The position numbers and the translations under genes are program-made. The notes beneath the pieces are model-generated. The model saw nothing but the letters and a program-made list of their open reading frames with translations. It did not search any database and was not told the origin of the DNA. A DNA stretch of 63,996 nucleotides, the filler included, from Rhizaria sp. SCN 62-66 (lineage: Eukaryota), in assembly GCA_001724265.1 (NCBI GenBank). It is 3 parts of 3 records of this genome, joined end to end, with 100 filler letters (N's around TTAATTAATTAA, not from the genome) between each part and the next. Parts side by side here need not be neighbours in the genome. Positions count along the whole stretch, not along the records: positions 24,886 to 49,620 come from MEDY01000417.1; 2 more parts are not named here. One strand, 5' to 3'. Shown here one piece after another: positions 9,801-63,996 of this stretch (positions within the stretch are counted from its first letter, which is position 1; the number at the start of each line of letters is the position of its first letter).

Positions 9801-11091
9801 GGAGGCCGAGAACGCCATCCTCAACAACCTCGGCCGCGAGGAGGCGCTCTTCTTCGGCCCCGACGAGGGCACTGCCGGCGTCATGGAGTGGGCTGCGCTC
9901 TACGCCAAGAAGCGCGGCTACCGCTACTGGCGCGCCTTCACCACGGGCAAGCCCCCGTCCCTCGGCGGCATCCCGCACGACACGTTCGGCATGACCACCA
10001 CGTCCGTGCACCGCTACGTCGTCGGTTGCATCGAGAAGCTCGGCATGAAGGAGGAGGAGTGCACCAAGATCCAGACCGGCGGCCCCGACGGTGACCTCGG
10101 CTCCAACGAGATCCTCATCTCAAAGGACAAGACCACCGCGGTGATCGACGGCATGGGCGTGGCTTACGACCCCGCCGGCCTGAACCGCGACGAGCTCACC
10201 CGCCTTGCCAAGGCCCGCGTCACCATCGACAACTTCAACCGCTCGCTCATCGGCCCCGGCGGCTTCCTCGTCACCGTCAACGACGTCGACATCACTCTGC
10301 CCTCCGGTGAGAAGGTCGAGAGCGGCGTGCAGTTCCGCAACGACTTCCATCTTCACCCTCTGGCGACGGCGGATCTCTTCGTGCCCTGCGGCGGCCGCCC
10401 GGAGTCCGTGAACCTCAGCAACGTCAACAGCCTGCTTGACGCTAAGACCGGCAAGCCCAAGTTCAAGGTCATTGTCGAGGGTGCCAACCTTTTCATCACC
10501 CAGGACGCCCGTCTCGTCCTCGAGGAGGCTGGCGTTGTGCTCTTCAAGGACGCCTCCACCAACAAGGGTGGTGTCACTTCCTCGTCCCTCGAGGTCCTCG
10601 CCGCGCTCGGCGTCGACGACACCAACTTCGCCAACAACATGGCTGTCCACGATGGCAAGATCCCCGAGTTCTACAAGAAGTACGTCGAGGAGATCAAGGA
10701 GCGCATCACCGCCGACGCCGGCCACGAGTTCGAGTGCATCTGGCGCGAGCACCTCCGCACCGGCCAGCCCCGCTTCCTGCTCACTGACCGCGTTTCGAAC
10801 AAGATCAACCAGCTCAACTTCTTCGTCCACGACTCGAACCTGTGGGACAACCAGCTGCTGCGCCGCGTCGTGCTCGAGGAGGCCATCCCCAAGCGCCTGC
10901 AGGAGCTCGTCGGCCTCGACGGCGTCATCAAGAACGCCCCTGAGTCGTACATCCGCGCTATCTTCTCCGCCTACCTCGCGTCCCGCTACGTGTACAAGTA
11001 CGGCGTCGAGGCCACCGAGTTCGCCTTCTTCGACTTCATGCAGCCCTACGTCAAGAAGGCCATCGACCTCGAGGCCAAGCTCAAGCACTAA
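6847..11091 (+). CDS. GDH2: Large NAD-specific glutamate dehydrogenase (fungal GDH2 type) with a probable mitochondrial presequence and a GAF-like domain
   Basis: Exons 6847-6895, 7161-7675, 7903-11091. Motifs GFHVRFADVSRGGIR, KNKDIPEFGSKG, FFGPDEGTA, QTGGPDGDLGSNE, VEGANLF, NKGGVTSSSLEV. Arg/Ser/Ala-rich acid-free N-terminus. Stop TAA. Confidence 0.95.
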
Positions 11092-19800: not shown

Positions 19801-22178
19801 ACTCGAAGGCGACGGTACCGCAGGGGTGGAGCGGGACGAAGCTGCCCACGTCCTGGCCGGTGTAGCCCTGCTCCTTGAGCGCGGTGAGGTCCAGCGAGGC
19901 GCCCGTCTCCTTGATCATCGAGTCGAGGAACGACACCGGAGGCACGTAGAAGTAGTGGTGCAGGTGGCCCCAGCGAATGCTGGTGACGACCTTGTGCACG
20001 GCGGGGCTGGGCGGGGCGAAGTTGGTCAGCGTCAGGCCGCCGACGGTGACGCCGTTCTTGGAGATGTAGGCGGCGCGCATGTATTGCAGCCAGTGGTGGA
20101 AGCGGTCCGCGCCGCCGACCGTGGCCGAGAGCGCAAGAAAGGGCGCCTGCGAGATGAGGAGGAAGATGCGCTCCCACGTGGGGCCGGCCTGCGTGGTGCC
20201 GATTGAGTGCACCTCGTCGAAGACGACGTACTTGATGCGGGACACCCAGGGCGCGCGCGCGGGCGACATGAGGAGGTTCTCCATGCACTGCGGCAGCGTG
20301 ACAAGCACGTCGAAGTTCATCGACGACGGGAGCTGAATGTTGGGGTCGTGTACGGCCACCGACGCCGACGAGCGCATCATGATGTCTGACTCGATCTGGC
20401 GCGCCAGCGCGAAGGTCGGCGCAAGGAACACGACGACGCCGCGCTGGGCCGCCGCCTTGAGCGTGCGGTTCATGCGCGCCACCTGCTCGACCGTGTAGAA
20501 GGACACGAGCGTCTTGCCGGCCGACGTAGGCGCGACGACGAGTGCCGACTCGTTGCGGTCGACGATGTCGAGCAGCTTGCGCTGCCAGCGATCCGGGTAG
20601 AAGCCCGACACGCGGGGGTCCTTCGCGGACTTGACGTTGCGGATCAGCGTGTGGCCGCAGTGCTGCAGCTGGAACCGGGCGCGGGAGAGCCCGACGTGGT
20701 AGCGGCGCTCGGCGGTCGACTGCGCGCGGCCGGAGTCGAAGCGCGACATGACGGCCAGTGCGTCGGCCGGGTCGGCGTCGGGGCGCTCGGCGAAGTACTT
20801 CTCGGCCAGGTCCGACGCGGAGTCGTTGAAGCCGAGCAGCGAGAAGGCGCGCATCGTCTCGTCAAGCTGGTCGACCGTCATGTGGGGCGTGAAGCGGCGC
20901 GCGATATCGTTAAGCAGCTGCAGCAGCCGCACAGCGACCTCCATCTGCGCGTCACTCGCCGCAGAGAGCGCCGACGCCGACGTGCTCGCCGTCTTGACGC
21001 GGTTCTCCACGCGGTCCTTCCACTGCGCGATGCGCCAGCGCATGAGCTCGAGCAGGCCGTAGAGCGCAGACTTCATATCCGAGTGCGCCAGCAGCTTCTC
21101 GTCGAGCTTCTCCACGCGGTCGTCGGCCGACATGCGCGACGTCAGCAGCGAGTTGATGAAGCGCTCGACTTCGGTCTGCGCCTCCTGCGCGTGCTTCTCC
21201 TGGACCTCGCGCGCCGCCTTGGCCTGCACCGTCTCGGGCGCGGCGGCCTTGACGGCCTTAGCCTTGGCGGCGTTGCGCTTCGCCATAAGCTCCGCCGCGG
21301 CGTTGTTGCTCTTCTTGACCTCCTTGGTGTTGGCCTTGGTCTTGTTGGCGTTGCTGCTGGCGGTCGCGACGGCGGCGGCGGCGGCGGCGGCCTCGGCCGA
21401 GACCATGCCGTTGTCCTCGTCGTCCGACACCTCGTCGTCGGCGCCCTGCTGCGTGGCGACGACGTCGCGCAGAATGATCTTGCTGGGCGTCTTCATCGAC
21501 TTAACGTACTCGTTCTTGGTGGAGTCGGCGCGGATGGCGTTGCGCAGCAGCGTGCGCTTGATGCGGATGTCGATGTACGACTTGAACCACAGCATCGCGC
21601 GGTCATGCGTGAGCTCGCGCGACGCGAAGCGCACGGCGTTGCGCACCTCCTCAGGCGGAGGGATCGAGTACTGCTTGGTGATGTCGGCGTCGTTGCGGCG
21701 GTACTTCTCGACCATCTTGATCATCATGTTCTTGGTGTCGCGGCCCAGAGACACGGGGTTGGATCCGATCACAGTCTCCTTGATGCTCTTCTTGAACGTC
21801 GCGCCGTCGGGCAGCGGCAGATTCGTGTCCCAATACTTGATCGCACCGGAGTCCTGCTTGGTCTCGGCGTTGGCCTCGTCCTCGTCGTCACCGTCGCCCT
21901 CGGCCAGCGCCAGAGGGCCACCGAGCAGCGTCGCGCTGTTGACGAACTCGCCGCCCGCGGAGCCGGCCTTGGCAGCCGCGGCATTGGCGGCCTCGGCTTC
22001 GGCGGCAGCTTTGGCGGCGGCGGCCTCGGCCTCGGCGACGGCGGCCGCGGCGGCGTCGCCGTCGGCCTCAGCCTCCCAGTCGTCCTCGACGGCCTCCTCC
22101 CAGCTGTCGGCCTCGGCCTCGGGCTCAGCCGCCTCGGCAGCCTTCGCGGCAGCGGCCGGGGCAGCGGTGGCAGAGGCA

Positions 22179-22213
<35 letters not shown>

Positions 22214-23871
22214 CTTCTTGCCCTTGGCGCTGGCGTCGCCGATGGCGGTCGCGATGGCGGCCAGCGCAGCGGGCGAGTTGTCCGACGCCGAGTCGAGCAG
22301 CACGCGCATAATCTGGCTGTCAATGGGCGGCAGCGCGGTCCACTGTGCCGCGAGCGTCTGGATCGAGCCTGCGGGGCCCGTCTCGGTCGCCGCCGCGGGC
22401 ACGGGCACCGTGGCGCGCGCAAGCGGGGCGACGGGCGCGGCCAGCTGCTTGCCGCCGAGCGCCTTGAGCGCCTGCGCGGGGTCCGCGGGGGCAGCGGCGG
22501 CGGCGGCCGCGTCGGTGACCTTAAGTGCGGCGAGCGCGGCGGCGTAGAGAGCCTTGAGAGCGGCCGAGTCGACGGCCGAGGCCGCGAGCGAGCCGTCGAG
22601 CGCCATCACCAGCACGCGGTGCCACAGGCGGCCGTCGACGCAGTCCTGCAGCGCGAGCGTCAAGGGCGCGGCCACGGCGACGTCGGCGGCCTCGGCGGCG
22701 GCGAGGGACGCCGCCAGCGGGGCCAGGTGACGGTACAGAGCAGTCGCGGAGGCGCGCAGGGCAGCAGAGGCGGCCGCGGCGGCGGCGTTGTCGGGCACGT
22801 CGATAAGTTCGTCGGGCTGCGCGCGCGCGGACAGGGGCAGGTCCTGTTGGTGTGCGGAGCAAGAGTACGGGGAGGATACAAGGTGAGTGATACGAAAAGA
22901 TTAAAAAACACATTTCAATATTTAAAGCAATTATACGATTATTCAAGTTAAATCAGGATGTACGACCATGCGTATGCAAAGATATCATGATGATAAGGAC
23001 GTACCTGGAGGAGGATGGCGTGGATGAGCAGGAGCACGGCGTGCGCGGCGGCGGCAGGCGTCTTGAGCGCGAGCAGCGCGCCCGCGGCCACGGCGGACGC
23101 GGCGAGGCGCGGCGTGTACAGCTTGGCGGCCGTGAGCGCGGTGGCGGCGGCGTCGTAGGCGGCGGCGGTAGCGGTAGCGGGCGGGAACGCGGCGGCCGCG
23201 GCGGCGGCGCGAGCGGCGGCGTCGGCGGCGGGCGTGCAGGTGAAGGAGAAGAGCTGCTCTGCGTCGTCGGCACGCGTGACCACGAGGCCGCGCAGCATGC
23301 CGTCGGACGCGATGAGCTCGTTGAGGCGCACGCAGCGCACGTCCTTGGTGTAGAGGTCCGTGAGCAGCGACGTGTAGAGCGCGGGCAGCGCGGCAAAATT
23401 CACCTTGGCACCGGCGTCGAGGCCGAAGGTGGAGAGCGTACGGAGACGCGTCTCCTGGGCGGGGGTCAGGCGACCGTCGCCGATGAGCATGAAAAGCGGA
23501 GAGGACTCCTGGACGTAGGCGATGAAGTCCTCGTTGGGGGAGTTAAAGCACGTCACGGTGGTGTGGAGGATGTGGCGCGCGTAGGCCTTGACGAGGTTGC
23601 GCAGGAAGGAAAAGTACGGCGACGGCTGCCACTCGCTGGCGAGGTAGTCAAAGAAGACCAAGTGCGCCGTGCGGTGGCCCTCGGTAATGCGGATGAGGCG
23701 CTGCTCGAAGACAAAGAGGAAGTGGAGAAGCTGACCCGAGTGCGTCAGGTCCAGGTTCTTCTCCACGAGCGTGTGGAGGAGGAACGAGTCGCCTTCGATG
23801 AAGAAGGGCTGCACGGAGCGACCGGAGTCGTCCATGATGTTGGCCGGGGTGTCTACAAACGACGTGGCCAT
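16827..23871 (-). CDS. DDX60: DDX60-like Ski2-family DExD/H RNA helicase
   Basis: Exons 23871-23005, 22843-19733, 19463-18781, 18624-16827. N-terminal FFIEGDSFLL...GQLLHFLFVFE and LPLSARA. Helicase core FYPDRWQRKLLDIVD, APTSAGKT, DEVH, LSAT, ATETLGLGVNMPCRT, QMSGRAGRRGFD. Stop TAA. An upstream exon is possible (CAG directly before the ATG). Confidence 0.85.
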
Positions 23872-24785: not shown

Positions 24786-24885
24786 NNNNNNNNNNNNNNN
24801 NNNNNNNNNNNNNNNNNNNNNNNNNNNNNTTAATTAATTAANNNNNNNNNNNNNNNNNNNNNNNNNNNNNNNNNNNNNNNNNNNN
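24786..24885. other. Artificial contig spacer (N-run with TTAATTAATTAA)
   Basis: 100-nt N block containing an all-frame stop linker. Confidence 0.99.
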
Positions 24886-24984
24886 GGCGGCAGCGGCTGC
24901 AGCCGCCGCGGCTGCCGCAGCGCGGGCTGCGGCAGCGGCGACGTCCTTGCGCGGTCGACCGTGAGGCCGCTTCGGCTCGTCCGC

Positions 24985-25017
24985 ACCCTAATAACCCTAA
25001 TAACCCTAATAACCCTA
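24985..25017 (-). repeat. Telomere-like array (TTATTAGGG)x~3.7
   Basis: + strand reads ACCCTAATA ACCCTAATA ACCCTAATA ACCCTA. Confidence 0.8.
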
Positions 25018-28000
25018 TATTCTGCTGGGGAATCGACGCGGCGGCTCCGTTGTAGCCAGCAAGAAGGCCCGTACTAACTGTGTATGTGTTGAAGAGCTCC
25101 ATATACTGCGCGTATGTTGTGAGCACTGGACCGAAGCGAAGAATGCGCGGATTGAACAGGTAATTGCTGCCAGAGATAGCAGAGCAGCCGGAAAAACGCA
25201 CGACCGTGTCAGAAACGCGCGTAGTCGTGTCACAGCTTAACTTCGTCATTGGTGATGAAAACCCCGTTGTTGTTGCATTTGTAGTCGATTGCATCACAAC
25301 ACGCGGAGCCATCACAGCCTGCGCTGATGATATGTCAAAGCCGAATGCAGCCGGTAACGCAGTGTGTGCGTAGACAATGCACTCCCAGTCCACCAGGACG
25401 GGTGCAGCGCCGTGGTCGTCAAGGGCGGGGTTTAACCCTGTTGCAGTCAGCCTGGCGGCGATTGGATACGCAACAAAATCAAGGTGGCGCGAGTAACTTG
25501 ACAGCGCAAGTGTCGCACTTTGAATGCGACGGGTGCTGCCAGCGGTGCTGGTGACGGAGAGACAGTCGAGGCTAAGGCTGTAATGAGTCGAAACAGCTAC
25601 ATCAAACTCAACGCCGCTGTTAACACCGGAGCTAACGCGAAAGCCGTCAACTGAGAGTGGTGTAATGCTGCTGCTCGCAGTAAATACATTCAGATCTGAG
25701 CACGTTGACGCAATGGTGTACGGAATCGTCGCGTCAACAGGATTGGTTGAGTAAAAATAGAGCCGCAAAGTCGTGCGTAGCTGCCGCGAGGCAACAATAG
25801 TCGCACTTGGCACAAGTACGCGGTCAATCTGCTCTGCGTACCAGTAGTAGTTGATTGCGTTGGCGGGCCGCAGCGTAATGGCATACTCAGCAATATATCC
25901 GGCGTTGTAGTCTGGGGTGCGCACCATGATTGAGGTAGGCTTAAGTGTGTAGGGATCCAGAGCATTCTCACGGCTAACCTGATTGGCATAAACAACTGAG
26001 ATGCCACCAATGGTGCACGACACAACATCATCGCTCTGTGCGCCTTTACTAGTGGCTGTCACTATAAGTCGGATTTGTGAGGCAGAGGCCGAAAAAAATG
26101 AACATTGACCACTAATCACCGCAGCGGAAGCAAAATTTACAGAAGTCGTAGCAGGAAAGTACTCGATCCAGCTACCAACTGAAATCGGCAGACGCGACGT
26201 AAGAATAAACGTCCCTGAAACAGTCGTCGCAACGTTTGTTAACACGGTGCCCGGTGACAGCTCAAGCGATATGGCTGAGTATGTAAACGAAACGGGGAGC
26301 AAGTTTGCATCAAATGCATTTGCCATTGACGTCGCCAGTACCACAGACCACTCTGTGTTGCCCGTTGTCGACTCAAGGTAAATCATAAGCCCATAAGCTG
26401 GAATCGTCGTCTTTGATGACGCGGATGGAGCAGCGACATTGGTGACGTTGAGTTCAATCATGTTGCTGCCAAGCGTTGCCCCGGCCGCGCATGTAAACTC
26501 CAGTGTGTTCGTGCTTGCAATAGTGGTCATACAACCGGCGTTGGTGATCATAGAGTTTGTGGAAAACCGCATAGGACACGCGGCTGACGTGCGAATTGTG
26601 CCACGATACGTGTACCCCGCTCCACTGAAGACGCCTTCCATTCCGGTGCCGTACCAGGTGCGGAAGCCCGCAGTAAAGAGATTGTCACTGCCGGAGACAC
26701 CTGAGCGGACGTGGCCTTCAATGTTAAGCTTGAGCTGTTCGGGTGTGAAAACTCGAATAGCACCTTGGTAGTTGCCGCAAGAGAAGGTGTAAAGCAGCGT
26801 ATACGTATAAGTTGGGTTGACGCGAGAGAGGAAACCGCCTAAAACCCTAGAGCGAGAATCGTACCACGAAGCAGCGGGCCGTGCTGAGACTGAAAGGGTT
26901 GCCCCGGCATAACTCTGAAGGTTGCCGTTAGTGACCGTGCAGCGGAACCGGGCTGCGAGAGTTTTCGCCGTGTTAATGTAGAAAAATCGCGTGCCAACGT
27001 TCATGCGAATATAATACGAAGTGCCTGAGCGCTTTACGGCGGCGCCAAAAGTTGGCGTAAGCTCATCTGAGATTATAGGTGCTGAAAACGGTAGCATTGC
27101 GTGCATAGGTGCAATACTCTCAATGCTACTGATGAGTTCGCCGTAGCTGGTGGTGATTTCAAAGAGCAAAAATGACTCTGTCGTTGAATGATTCAGTGGG
27201 GCGACGATTGTTGCCATTTGTGATAGCGCATGCGCATCCCAATATCGCATTTTAATTTCTAGAATAAAGCTTGACTCAGCCGCGTAGAGAGTCGAGCCAA
27301 TGCTCGTTACAGACGCCGTAAGTTGATACGTTGGTGTGAATGTTGGATTGCCGCTTGAGGCATAGCTATTGACGTATAAGTTCGTCCGTGAATTGCCAAC
27401 AATACTGCCATACCAGTCGACAGCGTTGCAGCCCACGGCTACTGGTCCACCGCTCAGCGCAGCAAAGTAGGTTCCTGTCCAATAAGGCCTGGATGTGCCA
27501 AAGTTGCCCGTGCATCCATAGACATAGAGACGATCAGGCCCAGTTGTTGAGCCCTCGTCGCTAGTCGTCGGAGACAGCACAACGTAAGCGCATCCTGAAC
27601 CCCCATTTTGATACACTGGCGCCACTGCGTAGAAAACATTGTTTAATGGGGGTCCAATATAAACCGATGAGCAGCGTGATGTGCAAGGGTGGTAAATTTG
27701 CGAGTGAATATATGTGTTCGTGACGCTATAATAGGTGACTCCATTAGGATTAAGCCATGACATGTGAACAATGGGCTTGATACCAGAGTACGTCACTGGG
27801 GAGATACCCGTGGCCAAACCAAAAGCCTGCGTTCGAAATTTACTACTCGTATTGGCGCTGTGCATGCCAGACTCGCTAGTGCCGGCATGATGGTAGACGT
27901 TATCGTCATCGGGACGGGATGCATCGTATGAGCTGTTGCTGTTAACATTGTCGTTACGGCTCTTGGGAGTCGTATTAGAGTTGTCGGTTTTGTTTGTGGT

Positions 28001-28333
28001 GTCTTTTGGAGGCTCGAAAAAGTCAGGATCATCGGCCGTAGCCACATAGTGTAGCGGCTCTCCGAACTCGCCGAAAGAATCGACACTCGGCGCGCCTTCT
28101 GATGGGGCATTATAGTCCGGATGTGTAACCCCCATCGCAGCGTATGTCTCACTAGACTCGGCTTGGACGACAACTTTGGCGTCAGGAAAGTCGGGATCCG
28201 GCTCGTAGTTGGACAACAGCCTCGGTTCAAATCTGTTGATGTCAACGGCAGGGGAGATTGGCGGGAGCGCGGCCATGGCGACGTGGGGCATGAGACACAG
28301 CGTGGAGAACGCAATGAAGAGGGCAAGAAACAT
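25018..28333 (-). CDS. Large secreted/surface protein, Ser/Thr/Tyr/Gly-rich; 3' end truncated at the telomere-like array
   Basis: About 1100-codon intronless frame; signal-peptide-like start MFLALFIAFSTLCLMPHVAMA; lower GC than housekeeping genes; no family recognised. Confidence 0.65.
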
Positions 28334-29607
28334 CAGGATCAAGTGTGTGCAATGCTGGTGATAGCGTCGGCGTGAGACAACCAGCTGTGCAAGCAACGAA
28401 CTATGCGTGATGAGGAGACATCTGGTGTCTGGAGACACTGCGGTTGGAGTTAAGTCCGATACGGCTGGGCACAGCGTCGGTGCGACAGACCGCATGATCG
28501 ACGACAAAAGCGGGCACGACGAGTGACAGTCTTGGACAGCACACATGTGAGAAGTACGCGCCGAGACTCAATTCCCGCTCCACTGCTGTGCTACTCAACA
28601 GCTGGACGCAAAATGCCCCCAGGATGTTGAGGTGTTGGGCTCGGCTAAAGGAAGATGCAGTTTGTCGCCGGGAAGACAGCAGACAGCAGGTGGTATGGAA
28701 GCTGCAGTGGTAAAGGAAACCTGGCGGGTGTAGCGTAAACAATGGGGAAATTGATGCAATAAGGTCCAACACGACTATAAGGCGGAGTTAGCGGTGTGCC
28801 TGGGGAAGAGTCGCCAAGGAGGAGAGGCAATAAATGTGAGAGCGTTGTGTGGCGTAGGGGGGTTGTGAGCGGGAACGAAACCACAATTTTGAAATATAAA
28901 CGATATTAATAAACACCCTCATTGTTGAATTTGTTCTTCGTATAGTGATCACAGCGAGAAACAGTCGGGGAAATGCAAAACCACGTGAGCTCCACAACCC
29001 TGACACGTAGATTAACTGTCCCGGAAGGCCCCTGGGATACGTCGCAAGTAGAATAGCAGTAGCTCCAAACCATCAACATCATCACATCACAGAAAAGTAG
29101 AATGGCCGTGATTGAATTTGAAACCATGTCTATCAAAGTGCACACAAGGTCTTTTAAAATCTGATGACCCAGGCACCTCGCTTATCAGTCTTTCCTTGTC
29201 ATGACACACTGTCTGAGAAGCCTCCAGTGACTATGTTGTCATCCCCGAAAGTCGTTTTGTCAACACCTGATTTTCAAGTTGTCAAAATAACACATATCTT
29301 TACAAAATCAGGACTTTTTTGCGTGAAAGAAACTTATCACAGAGTAAAACATATGTCCGTACATAGTGATATCATTTTCATCAGTGTTGTATTTAATCTA
29401 TATGTGAATATAGAAGATTATCCTGAGATCAGAGGCATCCGCGATGATATGTTGTCAGTTCTCTCTAAATATCGTGTTAACTATCAACAGCAATCTAATT
29501 CGCATATATATGAGTTAAATATATGCTACATGTAGATTATAATGGCACCGGACTTCCGACTACGTTTTTGTTCAAGTGTTGGTTGACCTGTCAACATCTT
29601 CGTAAGG

Positions 29608-29792
29608 TCACTCTGTCTGGGCGGTACTCTTCTTTTTCTGCGCCACATTGTCCCAAAACGCAGGCCGCCAAAATGGGCCCATCCCACCTGCATTATCTTC
29701 AACCCCCGACTTTGCGCTCCAATTTTTCGTCCTCGCACATTGCGCACCGTCAGCATCACCACTCACACGAACAGATGTGTTTGCACTGGCCG

Positions 29793-29823
<31 letters not shown>

Positions 29824-32800
29824 ATCTGCGTTTGCCACTGCAGCGGCAGAAACAAGAACAATCCTGCGCGCGCGCTCACTGGTGGACGCGCCGCGGCGCA
29901 CATATTCGCGCCACGACCGCGACTGCCGCGCCGCCAACACTGCTCGATAACCCGCAAACGCCTGCTGCGCCTCCTTGTCACCAGCGCTAGAATCGCCGGC
30001 AACGCCATCGTAAGTGTTCCAGCAATTGCTGTCCGGATCACTGGCGTTGTTGTACGGAGCGTTCTCCCACGGCATACGGTACAGCGGCGCGAACGTGTCA
30101 TCCTCCCTTTCGGCGCGACTCAGCGTTTCATACCGGCCGCGCAACGGGCCGTACGCCGGCGCTGCAAACGTCCCCGTCCCCAGTCCGCCCGCCCACCGGC
30201 CCGCAGTGAGCGTGACGCGGCCTCCGGCGCCGGTGAGCGTAGCGCCCGGCAGCGCGTACTGCGGGCGTCGCCATAGTAAGTCCCCGGGTTGGAAGAGCAC
30301 GGTGCGGCGCGTCACCGCGCGGCCCATTGGTGGCGGCGGGGCGGGGCGCAGCGGTGGCAGCGGCGCGGTGGCTGCCAGAGCGCGCAACACGGACGCGGCC
30401 TCGCTGTCGGTGTCCGCCACTGTAACGCTCTGCTCGCGGTCAATTAAGTCTGCAATGCAAAGTCGTGCCATATCGTCCATCGGGCTATTGTGTGAGACGC
30501 CGACAGTAACGCCCCAGCGTTGGGAGCTCTTAGTGTTTGTGCGAGTTTCGGTCGTCGCAGAGCGGGGCAAGCAAGACTGTGTCGCAGCAGCAGTGTCGGC
30601 AATCTCAGGAGGATGAGAGGTCGAATCAGTGATGATTGCAGGATTGCTTGAAGATTGTTGCGCTGCGTTAACTGTATCTGCAAGAGAGTCACTTGACAAC
30701 GTGTTCGCAGCTAAAGTTTTAGCAACATTAAGCTGTGGCTTTGAGTATGCTTCCGAGCGTTTCTTATCTCCTGGAACGCAGACATCAAGTGCAGCGGCGC
30801 TATTTGCGAGGGATAACGCAGAGTGCTCGTTTTGCTACTGCGCTAACGCATTTGTCGCTTGTTGTAACTCGGGAAACACAGCAAAGTCATCTTTCTCACT
30901 GCCACGGCGCGATAAACCCTTCATAGTAGTAGCAGCGGGTTTCAACGGCCTTGTTGTAGTTGCGCTCTTGGCGCTAGCGCGAGCCGCGATGCGCGTGTGC
31001 GCGTGGCTGGCCTCCGCAGCAAGCCCCGCACCGCCGAAAAAGGGCGCGGCAACAGCGCTCACCACAATCGCCTGCTATGAGGGACTCAACATGCTGGCAA
31101 CTGAGCGGGCCACGGACCGCAGTGTCGGCCGCCGCAGCAGCGGAGGCGCAGCGCGTGGGTGCTGTGGACGCAATGACTGTGAGCGTTGCAGCGACTGTGA
31201 GCTCTGCAATGACCGTGACTGTGATTTTGACTGTGACTTGGACTGAGGCGGCGAGAGTGAGTTAAGCGGAGACGGGAGAGTTGCATCGCTTGCAGAGGGT
31301 GTAACTGTCTTTAGAGTTGATGCATTCGCAGCAGCTTTGGAGCTTTGCTGTTGTTGCTGCTGCGATGTCTTGGTGGCAACAGTAGATTGTTTCGCAGTAT
31401 TATCATGTGCCTTAGCGTCCGTGGGCTCAGCATTGACAAAAACAACAACATCAGCAGCTGCAGCGTCAATTGTCTCAGCGGCACCGCTATCATTACCACA
31501 GCTGCCATCACTGTTTGTTGCAACGTCGTTGCCGTTCGCAGCATCGACAGCGCGCTGCTCAAACGCCGCCACAGCAGCATCCCTCTCAGACAAAGTCGCC
31601 ACGGCGGCCTCGGCCGCACGAGCGACTGCGACCGCGAGCGCACGCCTCTTTGCCTCAGTCGCCACCGTCGCTGCACTGTGCGCCGCTGTGTCTGACTGCA
31701 AAAACGCGCTCGTGGTGGATGTAGTCAAAGAAGTGTTCGCAGTGGTGCTGGGTTGCGCAGTGAGGGAGTGTGCAAGGCCGGCAGAGCGCGCGCGCCGTGA
31801 CCGCCATTGCGGTGAGCTATGGTAAGACTTTGATGCAGTCGGCGCGGGCTGCGAGCGCAAAGGGGACTTGTGCAGCGAAGACAAAGGCTATGAGCTGACA
31901 GAATCGCGACTTACAGGCGCGTTTGTCGTTGCGTTAGCGTGGGCCTCAGTACCACTCAGGCTCAGTGATGCTACTTTTGCAGCGTTTGTGCTTGAGTTTT
32001 TGCTTGGTTGGAAGCGTGCGGATGTTTCTTGGAGAACTAGCGCTTTGTGAGCGCGCACAGTAGCGCTACGACTCACTGCCGCATTGATCCCAGAGTACAG
32101 TGCGCGTGACAACACTCCGGTCATGTCATGCGGCTCACGGTCGCGCTGTGGACGACGATCTGACTGTGGGCGGCTCAACTTCTCGCTCTCGTCACTTTTA
32201 GCGCCGCCTTTCGGCTTTGACAAAGCAGTGGCATTAACAGCGCGCAGCAGTGAACGTTGCTTGCGCTGTAGCGGCTGCTGCTGCTGTTGTTGTTGTTGTT
32301 GATCTCGTTCTTGTGGCTCTCCCTGCTGCCCCAAATCGCTGCTGTGCGAGCTCTTGTTGTTACTCTCTGTGTTCCCAGTCCACGCCGCAAGCGCAGCGGC
32401 GAGACACCGTGTCGCCACCCGCGGCGGCAACGGCAGCCTGTGCGGGCGCGGCGGCTCCAGACTGGGCGCGCTGGCAGTCGCTGCGCCAGGCACGTGCGGT
32501 GGCTTTGCGTGGATCTGTAAGAGGGCAGGGGCGCGGGCTGAGAAACCGAGGCAGCGCGCGCATAGTGCAGCAAGAGTCTTTAAAGCTACGGGGTCAAATA
32601 AAGACTAATCACGACATTCACGCTGCCGCTGTGTAGTAGTGTTCGCATAAAATGTCGTTAAAACAGTTGCATCATTAGTTGCGTACGGCTTAACTAAAGC
32701 CAGGCTTGAAGTCGCAGTGGCATTGACATCTGGACAGCTAACATCACTTGTTGGTGATTGTTGCGATGAGGTTACAGCTTCACTGGTGTTTGTGCGATGA

Positions 32801-33477
32801 TTACTGTTGTTTGTGGCTATGTTGCGGCGCGCATTGGCGTGTTCCCACTACAACTGTCCCAGCAACGTATGCCAGTCAGCCGCTGTAGCCGGCGCGATAG
32901 ACAGTACAGTAGACTGTGGCTCACGGTCACGAGGTGTCTCTTCAGATACAGGCGCTATGACGGGCTCTGTTGCAGTCGCAGCCGGAGCTTGAGCCTCAAG
33001 CTCTGGTTTGGTATCCACAGACCTGTCCGTGGGCGTTGTCACTAAAGCGGTTTCATGCACTGCTGGAACATCAGTACCAGGGTCAGTGGGAGCAGCAGTT
33101 CCAGCAACAGTATCAGCAGAAACAGCAGTCTCAGCAACAGAGCTCGGCAGCGTCTCCGCAGCGGATGCTTGCGGTGCGCCCCGTTGTGCGTTATTCTGCG
33201 CCACCAACGCGGCCGCGTCGGTCTCCGAGTGCAGCGTGAGAGAAAGCAGCGCACCCGTGTCAGCGTTCACAGTCGCAACCACGCGGAACGCTCCAAGTGC
33301 AGAGAGGGCCATGAACGCCGACTCATGGTCACGGGTGAGTGGGACAACAATGCGCAGCACGAGCGGGGGCGGGGGACCGAATGGCGCAGTCGCAGAGCAG
33401 TGCGACAGCCCACTCGGCAGTGGCGCTTGGGGCGACACCGGTCCCAGATAGTCCAGGGACTGTGATGGGGTTGCCAT
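29608..33477 (-). CDS. Hypothetical low-complexity protein (~1290 codons) with five in-frame TAG codons
   Basis: Track ORFs 32848-33552, 31888-32493, 31075-31884, 30835-31065 and 29608-30699 share one frame. The only interruptions are TAG at 32848, 32605, 31888, 31075 and 30835. Ends at TGA 29608. Confidence 0.7.
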
Positions 33478-47008: not shown

Positions 47009-48496
47009 TTAATCGTTGTTGTTGTCGCTAATCTTCAGGGCCGCAATACCCTCGACCAGCGCCTTCTTATCCAGCGCCTTATCCTCCTCCTCATCCTCAT
47101 CCTCATCCTCTTTATCCTTTTTATTATTCAGGTCCTTGACAACGCGCTCCGCAGATTCTTCGACCAAGGAAGGCTTGGGAAGTGCGGAGATTGCGCCAGT
47201 CTTGTTGATGCTTATCGAAATGTCGTAGAGGGAGGACATCTTCTTGTAGTCGCCCTCGAATGTAAGCGCAATCACAGCACCGCGCGACTCTGTACGATCA
47301 TGGCTAACAGCGCACTTGGAGTGGAACATGCACTACAGAGCCGGGTCCACTTCCACTGACTCCGGGTTAGTGTTATTGTTCATTTCAGGGGTGTTCGGCA
47401 CTGCAAGAGGCCACAAGTACGTCGAAACAACGGAGTGGGATGTTTTCCCGAGGTTGAGCAGAGCGCGCCCAGCCTTGTTTGTCGTGCGCGACAGCTACCT
47501 GTTACCGACCTCGGGGATTTTGCGGTACACTCCCAGGAACGAAGCTACAAAGCACGAGCAGAGACAAAGGATCTCGTAGCATGAAATGAGGTAGTATGCG
47601 CGTGCCATGTGGCGCGTAGCCTTCTCCGTGGGATTATTGGCAGGTTGGGCAACCCCGTCCTTATCGACGAAGTAGTAGCCGTCTCCCTCGGTGACGATGT
47701 TTGCAGCGTCGCGAGCACTGTTGCTGTAGTCAAACATGTTGCTATTGGTTTTTTCGACTCGCTTGATGGCGATTGTCTCCTCCATAGCTATCGTCTCGTC
47801 CCCACCGCTCAGATTTGTTCCGAAGGAGGCCCAGCGCTTGTGACAGAGCTCGCATAGCGCAACGAACGCCTTCTGGATCAATTTTGCAGGGGCAAGACAA
47901 AGCACAACAAAGCCATACTTCTAGCGTTCCGTGTCGGCTTCGTCAGTTATGTGTTCCTCTTGGTCAGTTTTGTGTTCCTTGCTGATTTTACGCAGCTTCC
48001 ACAGGTACTTAAACTTATTGTCGCCTTCGCTGTACACCTGCGTCGTTACGCGTTCGCTATCTTCCACCTCAGATTCGTTGTAGTTATACTTGAGGCACGC
48101 AAAACGGCGACCAGAGAGGTACATGATTGCACAGACGACATTCTGGCAATGCTGGGCAGCAACACCGTTGCTATGGTCTCCGGCCTTTGCGTATGCTATG
48201 AACTGGTGCAAAATATTCGTGGCGTTCTCGATCGAGGTGCGCACGTTGAAGCGACGAAGAGGAGAGAAATAGCGCGTACTGTCAAGCTTATAAAGCGTCT
48301 CAGGTGTAGAGAGATCACAACCACTACCCTTAAACATCTTGGCTTCCACGATCTTCGTGGGGGAGGTACAAAGCTGTCCGTGCGTAGCGTTGTCCTGCCT
48401 ACCTATAGCGTCGTTCTGCACACGAACTGCAAACTTCGGGTTAGGGTCTTTCTTAGGCGTGGGCACAGTTTTGCTCTTCGCCGATGACGAGGACAT
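47009..48496 (-). CDS. Protelomerase (telomere resolvase)-like tyrosine recombinase with three in-frame TAG codons; intact gene under a variant code, or a pseudogene
   Basis: Track ORFs 47921-48496, 47495-47905 and 47009-47329 share one frame, separated by TAG at 47921, 47495 and 47333. Ordered motifs LSGRR, KYLWKLRK, VLCLAPAKLI, RHMARAYY and LGK-x8-Y. Intronless. Confidence 0.6.
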
Positions 48497-49620: not shown

Positions 49621-49720
49621 NNNNNNNNNNNNNNNNNNNNNNNNNNNNNNNNNNNNNNNNNNNNTTAATTAATTAANNNNNNNNNNNNNNNNNNNNNNNN
49701 NNNNNNNNNNNNNNNNNNNN
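49621..49720. other. Artificial contig spacer (N-run with TTAATTAATTAA)
   Basis: 100-nt N block containing an all-frame stop linker. Confidence 0.99.
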
Positions 49721-51175
49721 CCGGCTGCGGTGGTGGTCGACGGGGGCATGACGGGGAACTGGATGGGCACGGGCGTCGACACGGGCGGGATGGCCGAGTT
49801 GGTCGCGATGAACGACAGCGTACCCTGGCGCAGCGTGTGCGCGAGCTGCAGCTGCAGCAGGTGCAGCCGCTCCGTCTCGGCCTCAACCTGCGCGCGGCGC
49901 ACCACGCTGTCGTGCGACTCGACCGCAAAGCCGTCGGCGCCCGTTGCCGCGGCGGCCAGCGCAGCGGCCGCGGGCGCGCCCAGGATGCTGCCGCCGCCGC
50001 CACCGAGCTCGTCAAGAGCGAGAATGGCGGCGTCCAGGTCGTGGAAGGACGCCACGCCGCAGCGCAGCGAGCGCGGGACCAGCGGCGGCGGCGCGTGGGC
50101 CGGGTTCACCGACACCACGGACGAGCACGTGGGGCTCATGCTGCCGCCGCCGGCGCAGGGCACCGCAGTGCTGGAGTTGCTGCTCGTGGTGCTGCTCGTG
50201 GTTGCTGTGGCGGCAGCGGTAGAGGGCGCAAACGACTGCGGCAGCGTGCGCGGCAGCGGCGCCGCCAGCTGGGCACGCGCAGCGTTGCTAGCGCCGGGGG
50301 CCAGCGTCGTCGCCGACTGACCGGCGCCGACGCCCGCAGCAACAGCAGCAGAAGACTGGCTCGCCGCGCCAACAACAGCGCCGGCAGGCGCGCGGCTGTC
50401 TGAGTCGTTGGCGGGCTCAGCGCTCGCGCCAGAGGGCGCGGCCGCGGAGCCGTCGACGGCGCTGGCCGTGGCCGCGCCGCCGCCCACGCGCCGCCGGTTG
50501 CGCGCCGCGGCCGCCGCGGCAGCGCCGGACTGGCCCGCCGCGCCGACGGCGTTGCTGCTGCCCGCGGGCGACACGGCCTGCCCGGCCGCGGCCGCGGCGG
50601 CGGCGTTTGTGGGGATCGAGGCGAGCGCGACCGATGCGGCGTTGGAGGCCGCAATGGCGGCGGCGGCCGAGGCCGCGGCGGCCTGTGTCTGCGCGTTGAC
50701 CATGAGCGGCAGCAGCACTGGGTACGCGGGCACGCCCAGCGCGAGAGTCGACTCCTCGGACCGCAGCATCGCAGTGATGAGCGGGGACGGGCCGTAGAAT
50801 GCTGCAGTCGCGTGGAGAGTGCCCGCCGCGCCCGCCGCGCCCAGCCCGCCGCCAGCGCCCGCGCCGGGCCCCGCGAAGGGCGCGAAGGTGGGCGTCAGAG
50901 CCGACGACAGCGACGCGCTGGCCGCCGTGGACAAGATCGACGGCGTGCTCAGCGCCGAGAGGATCAGCGAGCCTCCCGTGATGACGCTCGCGGACAGCTG
51001 CGCCGCGCCGGCTCCCGCGGCGGCGCCCGCGCCCGCGCCCGAGGCCGAGGCCGGCGCGAGCTGCGAAGATGGGAACACGTGCCTGTAGGGCGCGGGACAC
51101 GGAGGCAGATGTGCGCTCGCGGTCAGCGTCTCGAATGTGGCCAGCGCGGCGGCGACGTCGGAGGGCGAAACACGC

Positions 51176-51210
<35 letters not shown>

Positions 51211-54200
51211 CTGCTGGTACTTGCTATTGCCGCCGTACATATTGTAGCCGCTGTTGCCACCCGAGAAGCGGTTGCTGTTGTTGTTGTAGCTGTTGTACGC
51301 GTTGTTGTTCGGGTAATAACTGTTGTTGACGCTGTTGCCGCCGCCGTTGTTGTAGTAGCTGCCGCCGCGATCTGCGCCGCCGTTATACCCGCCGCCGCCG
51401 CCGTAGTACGTGTTGCTCCCGTCGCCGCCGCCGCGCTGCGCGAGGTATGCAGTGAGCGCGGACAGGTGGCCGCCAAGCCCGCGCCGGTCGCCGCCGCTGC
51501 CTGTAGCCGCGACCGCGATGGTGTCGTAGCCAGCGGCGTGGACTCCGGCCGGCGGGGCCTGCTTGGCATCCTCGATCGACTCGAGCGTGTGCATCGACGT
51601 CTTGCTGGTGAAGACGTGTGTGTCGTAGCGCGTCCACGCGTCGAGCAGCGCGAGGTTGGCGTTGATGATCACGGGGTCGAACGACATCAGCAGCCGGACG
51701 ATGCGCGCAAACAGGCGGTGGATCGACTGGTGGTAATCGGCCGGCGCGCGGGGCGGAACCACGACGTCTGCGCCGATGACGAAGAGCGCGCAGAACGAGT
51801 GGCGCGCCTCGGACCAGTGCGACAGCGCGGCGGCGTGCTGGCCCTGCAGCATGCGCAGCTCGGCGAGGTTGAGCAGACAGCGCATCATGAGCAGCGGCAG
51901 GAACGCGCGCGTCGCCGTCTCCAGCACCGTGAGCGCCGACGACTCGAGCGTCGCGCAGAAAGTCTTGAGCGACTTGGCCGCGCACGCGTCCTCGGCGGCG
52001 CGCGCCGCCACGGGGTCGTTGGCCAGTGCGATATCCATGAGAGACAGCGGCGAGAAGGCCGTCGTGGGCGGCGGGCGGTCAGTCGCGACCTCGAAGCCCG
52101 ACAGCCGGAGCCAGGGGATGAGCGCGCGCGGCGGGTGCTGCAGCACCACGGTGGCGACGAACGCGATGTGGAGGTAGCTCTCGACGATGTTCTGCAGGCA
52201 GTTGCCCATGCCGACGTGGTCGCCAAAGGCCGCGAAGTGCTGGTATGCAAACGACAGCGCAGACACGCACGCGCGCGGGTCCGGCAAGATGAGCGTGTCG
52301 TCGCCCTCGCCGACCAACGTGGCCTGGTGCGGTGAGTGGCCCCAGTTGAACGGGAACGGGGCGTCGGCGCCCGCGCGGCCCAGACCGCCCGCGGCGCCGC
52401 CGTTGGGCCCGTTGCCGCCGCCATTGGCGCCGCCGCTGCCGCCGCTGTTGCCGCCGTCATTGCTATTCTTGCCACCGCTGCCGGCGCTGCTGCTGTTCCC
52501 GCCGCCCTTGCCGCCGGAGCCAGAAGCCGCGGCGCCGGCGACGACGCCAGAGCCGTTGCCGCCGTTGTTGCCGCCGCTGCCGCCGCCGACGCCGCCACTG
52601 CTCTGCGCAGAGCTGTTGGCGTTCGCGGTCGGCTCGAGAGACTGGCGGTACGTGTAGCCGCGCTCCATCTGCGCGTACAGCATCTCCTGCGATAACATTA
52701 GAAAGTTGCAAGGAGAAAAAATGACATAATGAAAGTGAGATAGTGTACATTAACGATATAAAAGCATACAATCTGAGTCAACTAAAGGATGAATGTGTCG
52801 CATAAGAGAGAATAGAGTTGAAAATGTCACGAACCTGGTGGATGATACCCTTGCGGAACATGAAGCGCGCGCGCAGGTGCAGCGCCGAGGGCGGGCATTG
52901 CGCCTGCGCCAAGTGCACCCAGCCGAGCGCCTGTCCGTGCGATCCCAGCATGGTGAGCGCAATGACGCGCGCCTCGAGGCCGCTGGTATTGAAGCCGCCG
53001 CCGTCGCCGCCGCCGCCGCCGCTGCCGCCCGTGCCTTCGCCGTCGCCGCTGCCGCCGATGCCGAAAAACGACCCCGCGGACCAGGTGTCGGCGGCGTCGT
53101 CGCCGTTGTTGTTGCCGGAGCTGCCGCCGGAGCCGGACGCGAGGCCCCCGAGCGAGCTGCTGTGGCTCGATCCGCGTGCGTTGGCCGCCGCGGCCGCAGC
53201 AGCAGCAGCCGCGGCGGCGGCGTCGCCGCCCGCGGCCGCCGCAGCCGCCGCAGCCACCGCGGCCGCCGCGGAGGCAGCAGCGTGGGGAAGGAGCGAGGCA
53301 ACGATCTGGCGCTCGTTTTGCGAAGCCAGCCAGCGCGCGTCCGACAGCGTGAGCAGGCGGTGCGCGCGGCGGTACAGACCGAGGCGCGCGTAGGCGAGCA
53401 CGAGCATCGAGTCGAGCGTGAGCTGCTTGGCGCGCGGGAGGGCGGCGCCCAGCTTGGCCAGGGTGATCCACGTCTGCGACGCCACGGGCGGCGCGAACGG
53501 CGCGGTCACCATGGCCTGAGGAAGGAAGAAACAGAGCAAAGCAAAGCACAAAAAGTAAACATTGTGAGACATTGTGAGATAAAACGTCAAAATAAAAAGG
53601 CAGTTGAAATCAAAGGAATGGATTCCTTTTAAAATAATACGATTGATATATGTTTAATCACGTACTTGACTGGCGACCTGTGAGGCGACGACCATTGCGC
53701 TGAGGATCGAGCTCGCGGTCGCCGCAGACGCCGAGGCAGCCGTGAGGGCCGTCGCGGCCGCGGAGGCGGCGGCGAGCCCCGCCGTGGAGCCGGTGCCAGA
53801 GCCGGTGGCCGAGCCAGAGACGCTGGCGCTGCCGGAGCCGGAGCCGGTGCCGTTGGTGGCCGCGGCGGCGGTGGCCGCGGCGGTCGCGGCGGCGACGGCG
53901 GCGGAGGCTGCGGCCGCTGCGGCGACGGCGGCGGGTGCGTTGGGGACGAGCCCTGCCGCCGTGGCCGCCGTGGGGATGGGGAATGACGGCACGACACCGA
54001 GCAGCGTGTGGATCTGCGCGATGCGGTTGGTCGGCTGGCCGCTGCCGTCGCCGGTGCCGCCCGCGCCGCCGCCCGCCGCGCCGCCGCCGCCGCCGCCGAT
54101 GACGCCGCCGCCGACCGCGCTCGCGCCCGCGCCCGCGCCGCCGAAGCCGCTGCTGTTGTTGAGGAGCGGCATGGACCGCAGCTTCATCGCCTCAAGCAGT

Positions 54201-59486: not shown

Positions 59487-59524
<38 letters not shown>

Positions 59525-62458: not shown

Positions 62459-63996
62459 TCACTTGGTGTCGACATTCTCCTCATCAATGACCTCATCATC
62501 GTCGCATTCGCTCACAAAGGCCCGCAGCGCCGCCAGTCCGCGCCTCAGCGCTGTTGCACTCAGTCCCATGTCGGCGACACCATTGTCCAAGTCTGGCCGG
62601 TCGAAACACGAGGGCCAGTTCGTCGCGGCCTGCACAAATACGAGCTCCAGGCTCCGTTCATCAGCACGATTTTGCTCTAGCTCCGCTGCACGTTCATCAG
62701 TCAAATGCTGCGCGTCAGCACTCTTTCCAGCTGCCCTCTCTCCGGCGCTCTTGTCGTCCGTGACGTCGCGCCACTGCACGAAGCCCGCGCGCACGCCCTG
62801 GCGCAGTGTCCACAGCCACGCGCGGTGCCGCTGCGGGTCCGTCATCATAGTGAAAAAGCCCACCGCGGCGTGACCCCTCACCAGCGCGTGCGCCGCGAAT
62901 CCCAGCTGACCGTACGCACTCGGCAGCAGCCGCTGCAGTGGCAGCGCCGATTTCGCAACAGGTTTAACGACCGCCTCGTAGATGAGGCAACGTGCCTACA
63001 CGCAGCGGTTGCAGGAATCTGCGCATGGACGCAGCGTGGCGAGCAGGAGCCGCGCTGTGGCAAGAATGTCGTGCGCGCTGTGCGCAACAGACAGCGACGC
63101 AACAGCACCCGTGAGCAGCGCGTAGTACGCCATGCGCGCGCAGAACACCGCGGGCGGCGTCGCCTGCCTCTCGGTGGCCCGGCGGTAGGCCGCAAGCACG
63201 ACTTCGACGGCGGCCGCATTGGCGGTCACACACAGCGCGTCGAGCAGTGTCAGTGGCGGCAGCTAGGGAAGCAGCGAGCCATCTGTGGTGAGAATACGGA
63301 AGAGGTGCTTCTTCCTGACAGGCTCCAGCTTCGTCGCCGCCACGAGCAGCGTCTCGAGGGCGCGGGCCACGGCGCGCCGCCCAGCGGCCGTGCTGTTGTC
63401 GGCGCCGCAGGTGCCGGAGCGTGGCGGAAGCAGATAGGGCACTGTGTACGGGTCCAGGGGCTTGTGCGTACCATGGCCCATAATGAAAGCGACGGGCACG
63501 CGGTGCACCAAATTTGTCAGCAGGCCGTGACGGGAGCACGCAGCGATCGTGAGCGGCGCGCCAACGGACAGCCCCCACTCAAACGAGGTAGAAAGCGGTG
63601 GCACAGACTTTAGACACGGCTTCTGACGCTGGTGTAGCCCATGAGTCGAGGAAAATTGAAGTGGCACTCGATTTTCCATGCTGCCGCTATCATTATTGTT
63701 TTTCATAATGCTGTTGTTAAAGCCCTCAATGGCACCACAAAGGCGTGTTATAAGCCGGGCAACCCGGGCATCATAGGCTGCAATGATAGAAGGCAGTGCT
63801 GCAAGCGTGTCGCGCACAGGCTCGACGGCGGCGGCGTACGTGGCAGCAAGGGCATCCGGAGTGATTTCTGAGGGAGTAATGTCAACGTTAAGACCAGTGA
63901 TATCGTCGATCACTGGTTCAGTAGAGGTGCTCGTGTTACCGCCAGATGAAGCATTTGTCGTCGATTTGTGAAGTGATAGCAGCTTAGCCGTCGAGA
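62459..63996 (-). CDS. Hypothetical protein, 5' end outside the window, with two in-frame TAG codons
   Basis: Track ORFs 63263-63913, 62996-63229 and 62459-62881 share one frame, separated only by TAG at 63263 and 62996. The frame is open to the window end and ends at TGA 62459. Confidence 0.7.

Follow-up and report, generated by a model that had tools for sequence, protein, structure and literature searches.

In the genome of Rhizaria sp. SCN 62-66 (assembly GCA_001724265.1), the codon UAG is probably translated, as one of the polar residues Gln, Glu or Lys, while UAA and UGA serve as terminators. The stretch of DNA that was analysed, hereafter the window, comprises 63,996 nucleotides and spans three contigs, i.e., A (1-24785), B (24886-49620) and C (49721-63996), the second of which carries the principal subject of this study, a minus-strand gene at 33477..29608 designated the target gene. 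TAG is the only stop codon found in the frame of this gene ahead of its terminator, the same pattern recurs in two further genes, sequence conservation continues across TAG codons in one of these, and TAG is absent from the ends of the open reading frames (ORFs) that were assessed.

In the mechanism proposed here, one class of genes, if not more, would have UAG decoded by the ribosome as an amino acid, and UAA and UGA would terminate translation. A tRNA that pairs with UAG, with anticodon CUA or as a strongly favoured near-cognate, would outcompete a release factor with poor UAG recognition, and the residue inserted would most likely be polar (Gln, Glu or Lys), with Leu and Trp less likely. 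The five TAG codons of the target gene would accordingly be ordinary, if rare, sense codons of a weakly constrained, disordered and lineage-specific protein.

A target gene interrupted by TAG only

The target gene and its TAG codons, with their state in contigs from other sequencing runs, are as follows:

29608..33477, minus strand: target gene, from ATG at 33477 to TGA at 29608-29610; 1289 codons plus stop, five in-frame TAG codons
32848..32850, minus strand: TAG 1, codon 210, between GQL and WEH; unchanged in X4
32605..32607, minus strand: TAG 2, codon 291, between CRD and SLF; unchanged in X4
31888..31890, minus strand: TAG 3, codon 530, between VSS and PLS; unchanged in X4, X5 and a contig of RNA library X10
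31075..31077, minus strand: TAG 4, codon 801, between SPS and QAI; unchanged in X5 and X6
30835..30837, minus strand: TAG 5, codon 881, between LAQ and QNE; unchanged in X4

The preliminary description of this DNA had reported a minus-strand frame of ~1290 codons, broken only by five TAG codons and free of TAA, TGA and frameshifts. The position and context of each TAG codon were confirmed, as was the absence of frameshifts and of any further stop codon apart from the terminal TGA, and the CAA and CGA codons said to be present were indeed found (30 and 4, respectively). The other five frames over 29608-33477 contain 31, 74, 50, 12 and 44 stops. From the base composition at each codon position, 8.5 TAA and 6.3 TGA codons would be expected in the target frame, and none is seen (Poisson 3.7e-7). 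The G+C content drops to 0.31-0.42 just outside both the start codon (ATG, 33477) and the terminal TGA (29608), and the coincidence of these drops with the two ends makes the frame look like a single gene unit. When codon usage was scored with neighbouring genes as the training set, the target frame came out highest in all six pieces delimited by the TAG codons, albeit weakly. The product is a low-complexity protein rich in Ala, Ser, Thr and Gln, for which a comparison with Pfam returned no family and for whose C-terminal ORF a single-sequence structure model was unusable (mean pLDDT 39.2).

Runs that contain the stretch stem from seven studies and are metagenomes of bioreactors, wastewater and microbial fuel cells. 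Other codons at the TAG sites in raw reads had been named at the outset as a finding that would count against the interpretation; contigs of other studies, up to ten years apart, were found to read TAG at each site wherever it was covered. Four sites are covered in X4 (32848, 32605, 31888 and 30835, as judged from the pieces listed, among which 31075 is not demonstrably included), two in X5 (31888 and 31075) and one in X6 (31075). Assembly error was therefore rejected as the source of these codons, given that contigs of other runs carry the same TAGs. A polymorphic insertion of 12 bases at 31227, within a SQSKSQSK repeat of the target gene, keeps the frame in X5, and an insertion of 4 bases was seen in the flank, outside the gene. 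In addition, the X4 contig goes back 49 bases at 31218/31170, indicating that the copy number of the SQSKSQSK repeat varies between strains.

No RNA run is among those listed as containing the stretch. Contigs of RNA libraries cover 11 of 30 bins and one of the five TAG sites. The contig in question, from polyA library X10, carries the genomic letters at TAG 31888, and its 218 bases upstream of that site run colinear with the genome, at a depth of 3.8, with the site 8-10 bases from the contig end and with DNA carry-over possible. A T>C difference at 32025 (plus strand), i.e., A-to-G in the mRNA, by which ACA becomes GCA at codon 485, was seen in RNA library X10 only and may be a strain variant.

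Two further genes with TAG as the only internal stop

Two more frames with the same property were identified in the window:

62459..63994, minus strand: 3' part of gene 3, contig C; TAG at 63263 and 62996, TGA stop at 62459
47009..48496, minus strand: second TAG-only frame, contig B; 495 codons, TAA end, TAG at 47921, 47495 and 47333 (low coordinates)

Gene 3 is extended upstream by L001, a metagenome contig of 4071 bases that is 100% identical to the window over 62515-63996 and that was the only match when metagenome contigs were scanned with gene 3 as query. Frame 2 of L001 is open over 1356 codons but for six TAG codons, the other five frames having 26-61 stops, and gene 3 as extended comprises at least 1375 codons with six TAGs. 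The expected number of TAA and TGA codons in the gene is 12.3, of which none is seen (P 4.6e-6); for the part of gene 3 within the window alone the expectation is 2.9, and the absence is not significant.

The alignment of conserved proteins with in-frame TAG codons, as the preliminary description had advocated, was applied to this gene. An intact homologue of 661 residues from another organism (P0006) shares 47% identity with the window part, at a coverage of 98%, and the homology passes through two TAG codons, with conservation downstream at least as high as upstream: identity is 48% (185/384) before TAG 5, 62.5% (55/88) between TAG 5 and TAG 6, and 55.6% (84/151) after TAG 6. The predicted protein of a lineage that is 94% identical (P0005; 315/335) ends at the same TAG 5. 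Gene 3 is also much longer than P0006, in that positions 1-2100 of L001 add ~700 codons, with ankyrin repeats and four TAG codons, and the frame is still open at the contig end.

In this upstream part, an Ank_2 domain was recognised at residues 61-121 (30.2 bits, cut-off 27.3) on both sides of TAG 1, which lies at residue 88, in the middle of the match, at the 'LL-x-GAD' column. In ten distinct aligned human ankyrin repeats, this column holds K, K, N, E, Q, E, E, K, D and Q. TAG 1 was translated as nine residues in turn and each version was scored against Ank_2, Ank and Ank_3:

Q: Ank_2 25.0, Ank 24.4, Ank_3 22.5 bits
E, K, N and D: near Q on Ank_2, Ank and Ank_3
L: Ank_2 22.2, Ank 20.9, Ank_3 19.8 bits
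W: Ank_2 21.4, Ank 22.1 bits; Ank_3 leaves the repeat unmatched (15.8 bits elsewhere)

At this one site Q, E, K, N and D thus outscore L by ~3 bits and W by 2-4 bits, which appears to favour a polar residue and to speak against Leu and Trp. The earlier suggestion that Gln is mildly favoured, with Leu or Glu possible, holds to the extent that Gln is, along with Glu, Lys, Asn and Asp, among the residues preferred over L or W.

The frame at 47009-48496, over precisely which G+C is elevated, is a moderate and weaker case than either the target gene or gene 3, with 5.7 TAA and TGA codons expected and none seen (P 0.003) and with only 4 stops in the aligned opposite frame. Its product gives a sub-threshold match to the catalytic domain of the telomere resolvases ResT/TelK (E = 4.4e-4, 20.3 bits, cut-off 27), and may represent a tyrosine-recombinase-like gene of a mobile element. 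A single-sequence structure model of this product was unusable (mean pLDDT 34.5).

TAG frequency, sequence context and terminators

Taken together, the three genes contain 14 TAG codons (5+3+6) and neither TAA, TGA nor frameshifts in 3161 codons on two contigs. The share of TAG among random one-step nonsense changes was calculated as 0.45, 0.57 and 0.48 for the target gene, the 47009 frame and gene 3, respectively, or 0.53, 0.65 and 0.52 where transitions only are considered, and the probability that all 14 would be TAG under random nonsense is 4e-5 to 2e-4, with the missing indels not counted in. The argument made at the outset, namely that decay should also create TAA, TGA and indels, is in line with this calculation. 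Relative to codon-position base composition, TAG itself occurs at approximately one third of its expected frequency in every bearer (5/14.2 in the target gene, 3/9.5 in the 47009 frame and 6/16.9 in gene 3). The G+C content at third codon positions (GC3) is 0.56-0.64 in the three TAG bearers and 0.71-0.95 in most other genes. The base that follows the 14 TAG codons is C in seven cases, T in three, A in three and G in one, where frequencies of 0.25 for C and 0.36 for G would be expected (p = 0.054 and 0.025, respectively, G being depleted).

The ends of 18 ORFs were assessed, of which nine are TAA, nine are TGA and none is TAG. This set comprises ORFs of at least 250 amino acids, to which the two TAG-bearing frames were added, and from which antisense shadows, two linker ends and ORFs that run into introns were removed; the latter are those at 4147, 19697 and 18738, together with that at 2550, which was excluded by inference only, being taken for an internal exon of the PI3K gene in a frame that overlaps its final exon. 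In the two long ORFs that close at TAG, the reading leads into a GT-AG intron. On the assumption that TAG normally ends a fifth of genes, the probability of finding no TAG among 18 ends is 0.8^18 = 0.018. The role of UAA as a stop, as put forward in the preliminary description, therefore stands, but is not exclusive to UAA, since TGA ends as many ORFs and terminates the target gene itself.

Relation to known variant codes

Among the closest parallels is Rhizaria sp. exLh (Sainouroidea), in which UAG encodes Leu and UAA and UGA are stops (PMC5304391). As in that organism, UAG alone occurs in frame and genes end in UAA or UGA only, in a ratio of 56/15 there and 9/9 here (PMC5304391). A further similarity is the scarcity of UAG in highly expressed genes. 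In exLh, UAG is rare in ribosomal protein genes, and a set of 71 conserved genes was recorded to contain 384 UAG codons, for the most part at positions where Leu is conserved (PMC5304391), whereas none occurs in the conserved genes sampled here, and Leu is a poor fit at the single informative site. Iotanema spirale (Fornicata), in which UAG encodes Gln and UAA is still a stop (PMC5304391), similarly has UAG alone reassigned, and Gln is among the residues that fit in the present case; the residue was deduced from many conserved sites in Iotanema (PMC5304391), as opposed to one site here, at which Q, E, K, N and D are not separable.

A precedent for uneven use is provided by Amoebophrya sp. ex Karlodinium veneficum, in which approximately half of the transcripts are free of reassigned codons, the number of which varies among paralogues between none and >100 (PMC6394959). 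Two sets of genes, with and without in-frame stop codons, are thus common to both organisms, although all three stops are affected in an AT-biased genome in Amoebophrya (PMC6394959), compared to UAG only in a GC-rich genome here. The contrast between TAG-bearing and TAG-free genes is sharper in the present case than in either Amoebophrya or exLh.

In the ambiguous codes of Condylostoma, the karyorelicts and Blastocrithidia (UAA), a codon read as sense doubles as a terminator, unlike TAG in the present material, which is found at 0/18 ends, a small sample. Ciliate genomes are generally AT-rich and their introns tiny, while the exons analysed here have 55-70% G+C and the introns span 156-269 bases. 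UAG-only reassignments are known from phyllopharyngean ciliates (PMC11687900), and the present case shares with these a change in the meaning of UAG apart from UAA. The literature was searched for such an organism in activated sludge or metagenomes and no description was found, supplementary files being outside the search.

Nuclear codes that split UAG from UAA are few, and each case tests the models of codon capture, i.e., codon disappearance as opposed to an ambiguous intermediate. In this organism, UAG is apparently absent both as a terminator and from conserved genes, and seems to be kept, at a low and even frequency, in a few genes under weak constraint. This would represent an unusually early or partial stage of reassignment, such that the order of events would be open to direct study. 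There is also a practical consequence, as the public protein collection carries the target gene as four fragments: gene callers split TAG-bearing genes, and eukaryotic bins from wastewater would be mis-annotated as a result.

Weighing of the evidence and alternative explanations

The claim that UAG is read as an amino acid, made originally for the target gene alone, is strengthened by two more TAG-only frames, by an ankyrin repeat recognised across a TAG codon and by the lack of TAG among 18 ends. A considerable number of observations weigh against it, foremost among which is the all-or-none occurrence of TAG between genes: 21 other gene segments, with 12,557 codons in total, are free of TAG, against ~45-54 expected at the rate of the bearers, and these segments include the neighbouring gene at 24887-28546 (1220 codons, GC3 0.55) and the Gln-rich gene Tdp1 (80 Gln codons). 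A plain, uniform reassignment does not fit such a distribution, and the sharpness of the contrast leaves room for conditional decoding or an early stage. The absence of TAG from ORF ends is suggestive and carries modest weight, since the sample is small and a Pfam family or a homologue supports only eight of the 18. Coding scores are weak, at 0.08 and 0.17 bits per codon for the target gene and the 47009 frame, compared to 0.19-0.35 in the training genes. No relatives of the target gene were found by a word-index search or by a HMMER search against 1.84 billion representatives, the four HMMER matches all being 99-100% identical, TAG-cut fragments of the target itself; the 47009 frame was likewise without relatives in a protein search. 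Among strains, the target gene shows 22 differences, seven synonymous and 15 non-synonymous, with a ratio of non-synonymous to synonymous polymorphism (pN/pS) of ~0.75, in which there is no clear sign of purifying selection and for which 22 differences lack the power to separate selection from neutrality. With no relatives and near-neutral evolution, the target gene on its own could be a decaying gene; judged in isolation, it may be a young pseudogene or may encode a disordered protein under weak constraint. The gene also carries a selection bias, the window having been drawn from a very large scan, and the three contigs may not all be from one organism. No tRNA gene was found across the window. 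As for the residue, one of the 14 TAG codons is the ankyrin site, 11 have nothing to which they can be aligned, and the two with a counterpart in P0006 lie opposite Pro and Gly, within a variable stretch, and are thus uninformative.

The uneven distribution of TAG would be accommodated by a reading, which we consider unlikely, in which UAG is a stop or a strongly avoided codon in the majority of genes and is read through in certain states only, brought about by a regulated suppressor tRNA, a weak release factor or a favourable context, such that a class of genes with 3-6 UAG codons would be expressed in those states alone, or in which reassignment is at an early and costly stage. The all-or-none occurrence of TAG, its steady level of about a third of the composition expectation in the three bearers and the low GC3 of these genes (0.56-0.64) are in agreement with such decoding, as is the C that follows TAG in 7/14 cases (with G in 1/14), given that C following a stop codon is a leaky context in eukaryotes. 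With five to six UAG codons per gene, however, read-through would have to be nearly complete for any full-length product to be made, and no UAG terminator is found among the 18 ends, small as that sample is. It is possible, though we propose it tentatively, that UAG acts as a gate, in which case a low-GC3, lineage-restricted class of genes (3 of ~20 sampled), each with 3-6 UAG codons, would be decoded via a regulated suppressor tRNA or release-factor state, or would offer a snapshot of reassignment at an early stage; all other genes are proposed to avoid UAG both in frame and as terminator.

It is improbable that the three frames are pseudogenes of recent origin in which, by chance, every nonsense mutation gave TAG, even though the target gene is without relatives, of low complexity and nearly neutral, TAG is the commonest one-step nonsense outcome (45-65%) and the window was chosen out of a very large scan. 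In dead genes, frameshifting indels usually accumulate at least as fast as nonsense changes, whereas here there are no frameshifts in 3161 codons, mixed stop types are absent, and the probability of 14/14 TAG is as low as given above; moreover, three such genes would have to occur among ~20, and gene 3 retains at least the same conservation downstream of its TAG codons, with a 94%-identical lineage keeping the stop at TAG 5. Bursts of C-to-T change akin to repeat-induced point mutation were rejected, as these would also turn CAA, present 30 times, into TAA, and both TGG and CGA into TGA.

Correction of the TAG codons by mRNA editing, be it UAG-to-UGG by adenosine-to-inosine (A-to-I) change as in filamentous ascomycetes or U-to-C change to CAG, is quite improbable. 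Such editing would explain the TAG-only pattern (14/14), since no stop codon other than UAG lends itself to repair through one A-to-I change following U. At the ankyrin column, however, Trp is the worst or near-worst residue and is carried by none of the ten aligned repeats, and the X10 contig reads the genomic letters at TAG 31888, although this is weak evidence given its depth, the nearby contig end and possible DNA. A class I-like PI3K, such as that encoded on contig A, is unusual for Dikarya and was counted against fungal editing. In filamentous ascomycetes, A-to-I editing restores premature UAG to Trp in ~71 genes per genome, at one site and rarely two, e.g., 6/71 edited genes of Fusarium graminearum have two sites (PMC10776026). 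The premature stops there are likewise UAG only, in genes that are otherwise intact and mostly young (PMC10776026; PMC11156358), but the 3-6 sites per gene observed here, in 3 of ~20 genes, are unlike that situation.

It is scarcely credible that the TAG codons lie in small in-frame introns, or that the open frame mirrors a gene on the opposite strand. The organism does possess GT-AG introns, and three of the target TAGs follow TCA or CAG and are acceptor-like, yet the known introns, of 156-269 bases, are AT-rich and filled with stops, such that fourteen stop-free introns of 3n length were rejected as not credible; the colinearity of the X10 contig upstream of TAG 31888 also argues against splicing. 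TAG-only frames are common opposite GC3-rich genes (e.g., 30 TAG codons in 7773-10163, opposite the glutamate dehydrogenase gene), but an antisense shadow was rejected for the target, over which no plus-strand frame is open (12-50 stops) and whose minus-strand frame scores best in the six pieces.

Genomic setting

The runs of N and the 12-mer TTAATTAATTAA, which occurs twice in the window, between N runs, and acts as a six-frame stop linker, indicate that the window was produced by joining three contigs artificially:

24786..24885, strand not applicable: artificial joint between A and B, N44 + TTAATTAATTAA + N44
49621..49720, strand not applicable: artificial joint between B and C, of the same build

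The apparent TAA ends of the ORFs at 24830..28546 and 49669..52698 (at 24830 and 49669, respectively) belong to the linker, the genes being cut at contig ends.

The source is an uncultured, GC-rich, intron-bearing eukaryote, with the exon composition and intron lengths given above. On contig A, Pfam searches identified genes for a class I-like PI3K, a large NAD-glutamate dehydrogenase, Tdp1 and a DEAD/Helicase_C helicase, and on contig B those for a MCM-binding protein, a dual-specificity phosphatase and an MFS transporter. Introns were located in two of the contig A genes:

1370-5634, minus strand: class I-like PI3K gene (Ras-binding, C2, PIK and kinase domains), at least 3 exons
16827-22606, minus strand: DEAD/Helicase_C helicase gene, two AT-rich GT-AG introns, exon GC3 0.92-0.94

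The PI3K intron at 4173-4002 (172 bases, GTAGGT...CAG) contains the TAG that closes the first ORF, and the helicase introns are located at 19732-19464 (269 bases) and 18780-18625 (156 bases).

A search of the window for Rfam families, rRNA included, returned none, and a scan of metagenome contigs with the neighbouring gene as query gave no match, as did scans of genome contigs and viral contigs for more sequence of the organism. Atlas look-ups for the glutamate dehydrogenase and the MCM-binding protein gave taxa that were uninformative as to its placement. A repeat search of the window returned trinucleotide low complexity only, and thus no dispersed repeat usable as a probe. Finally, GC3 was observed to range from 0.54 to 0.95 between neighbouring genes across the window, with the three TAG bearers among the five lowest.

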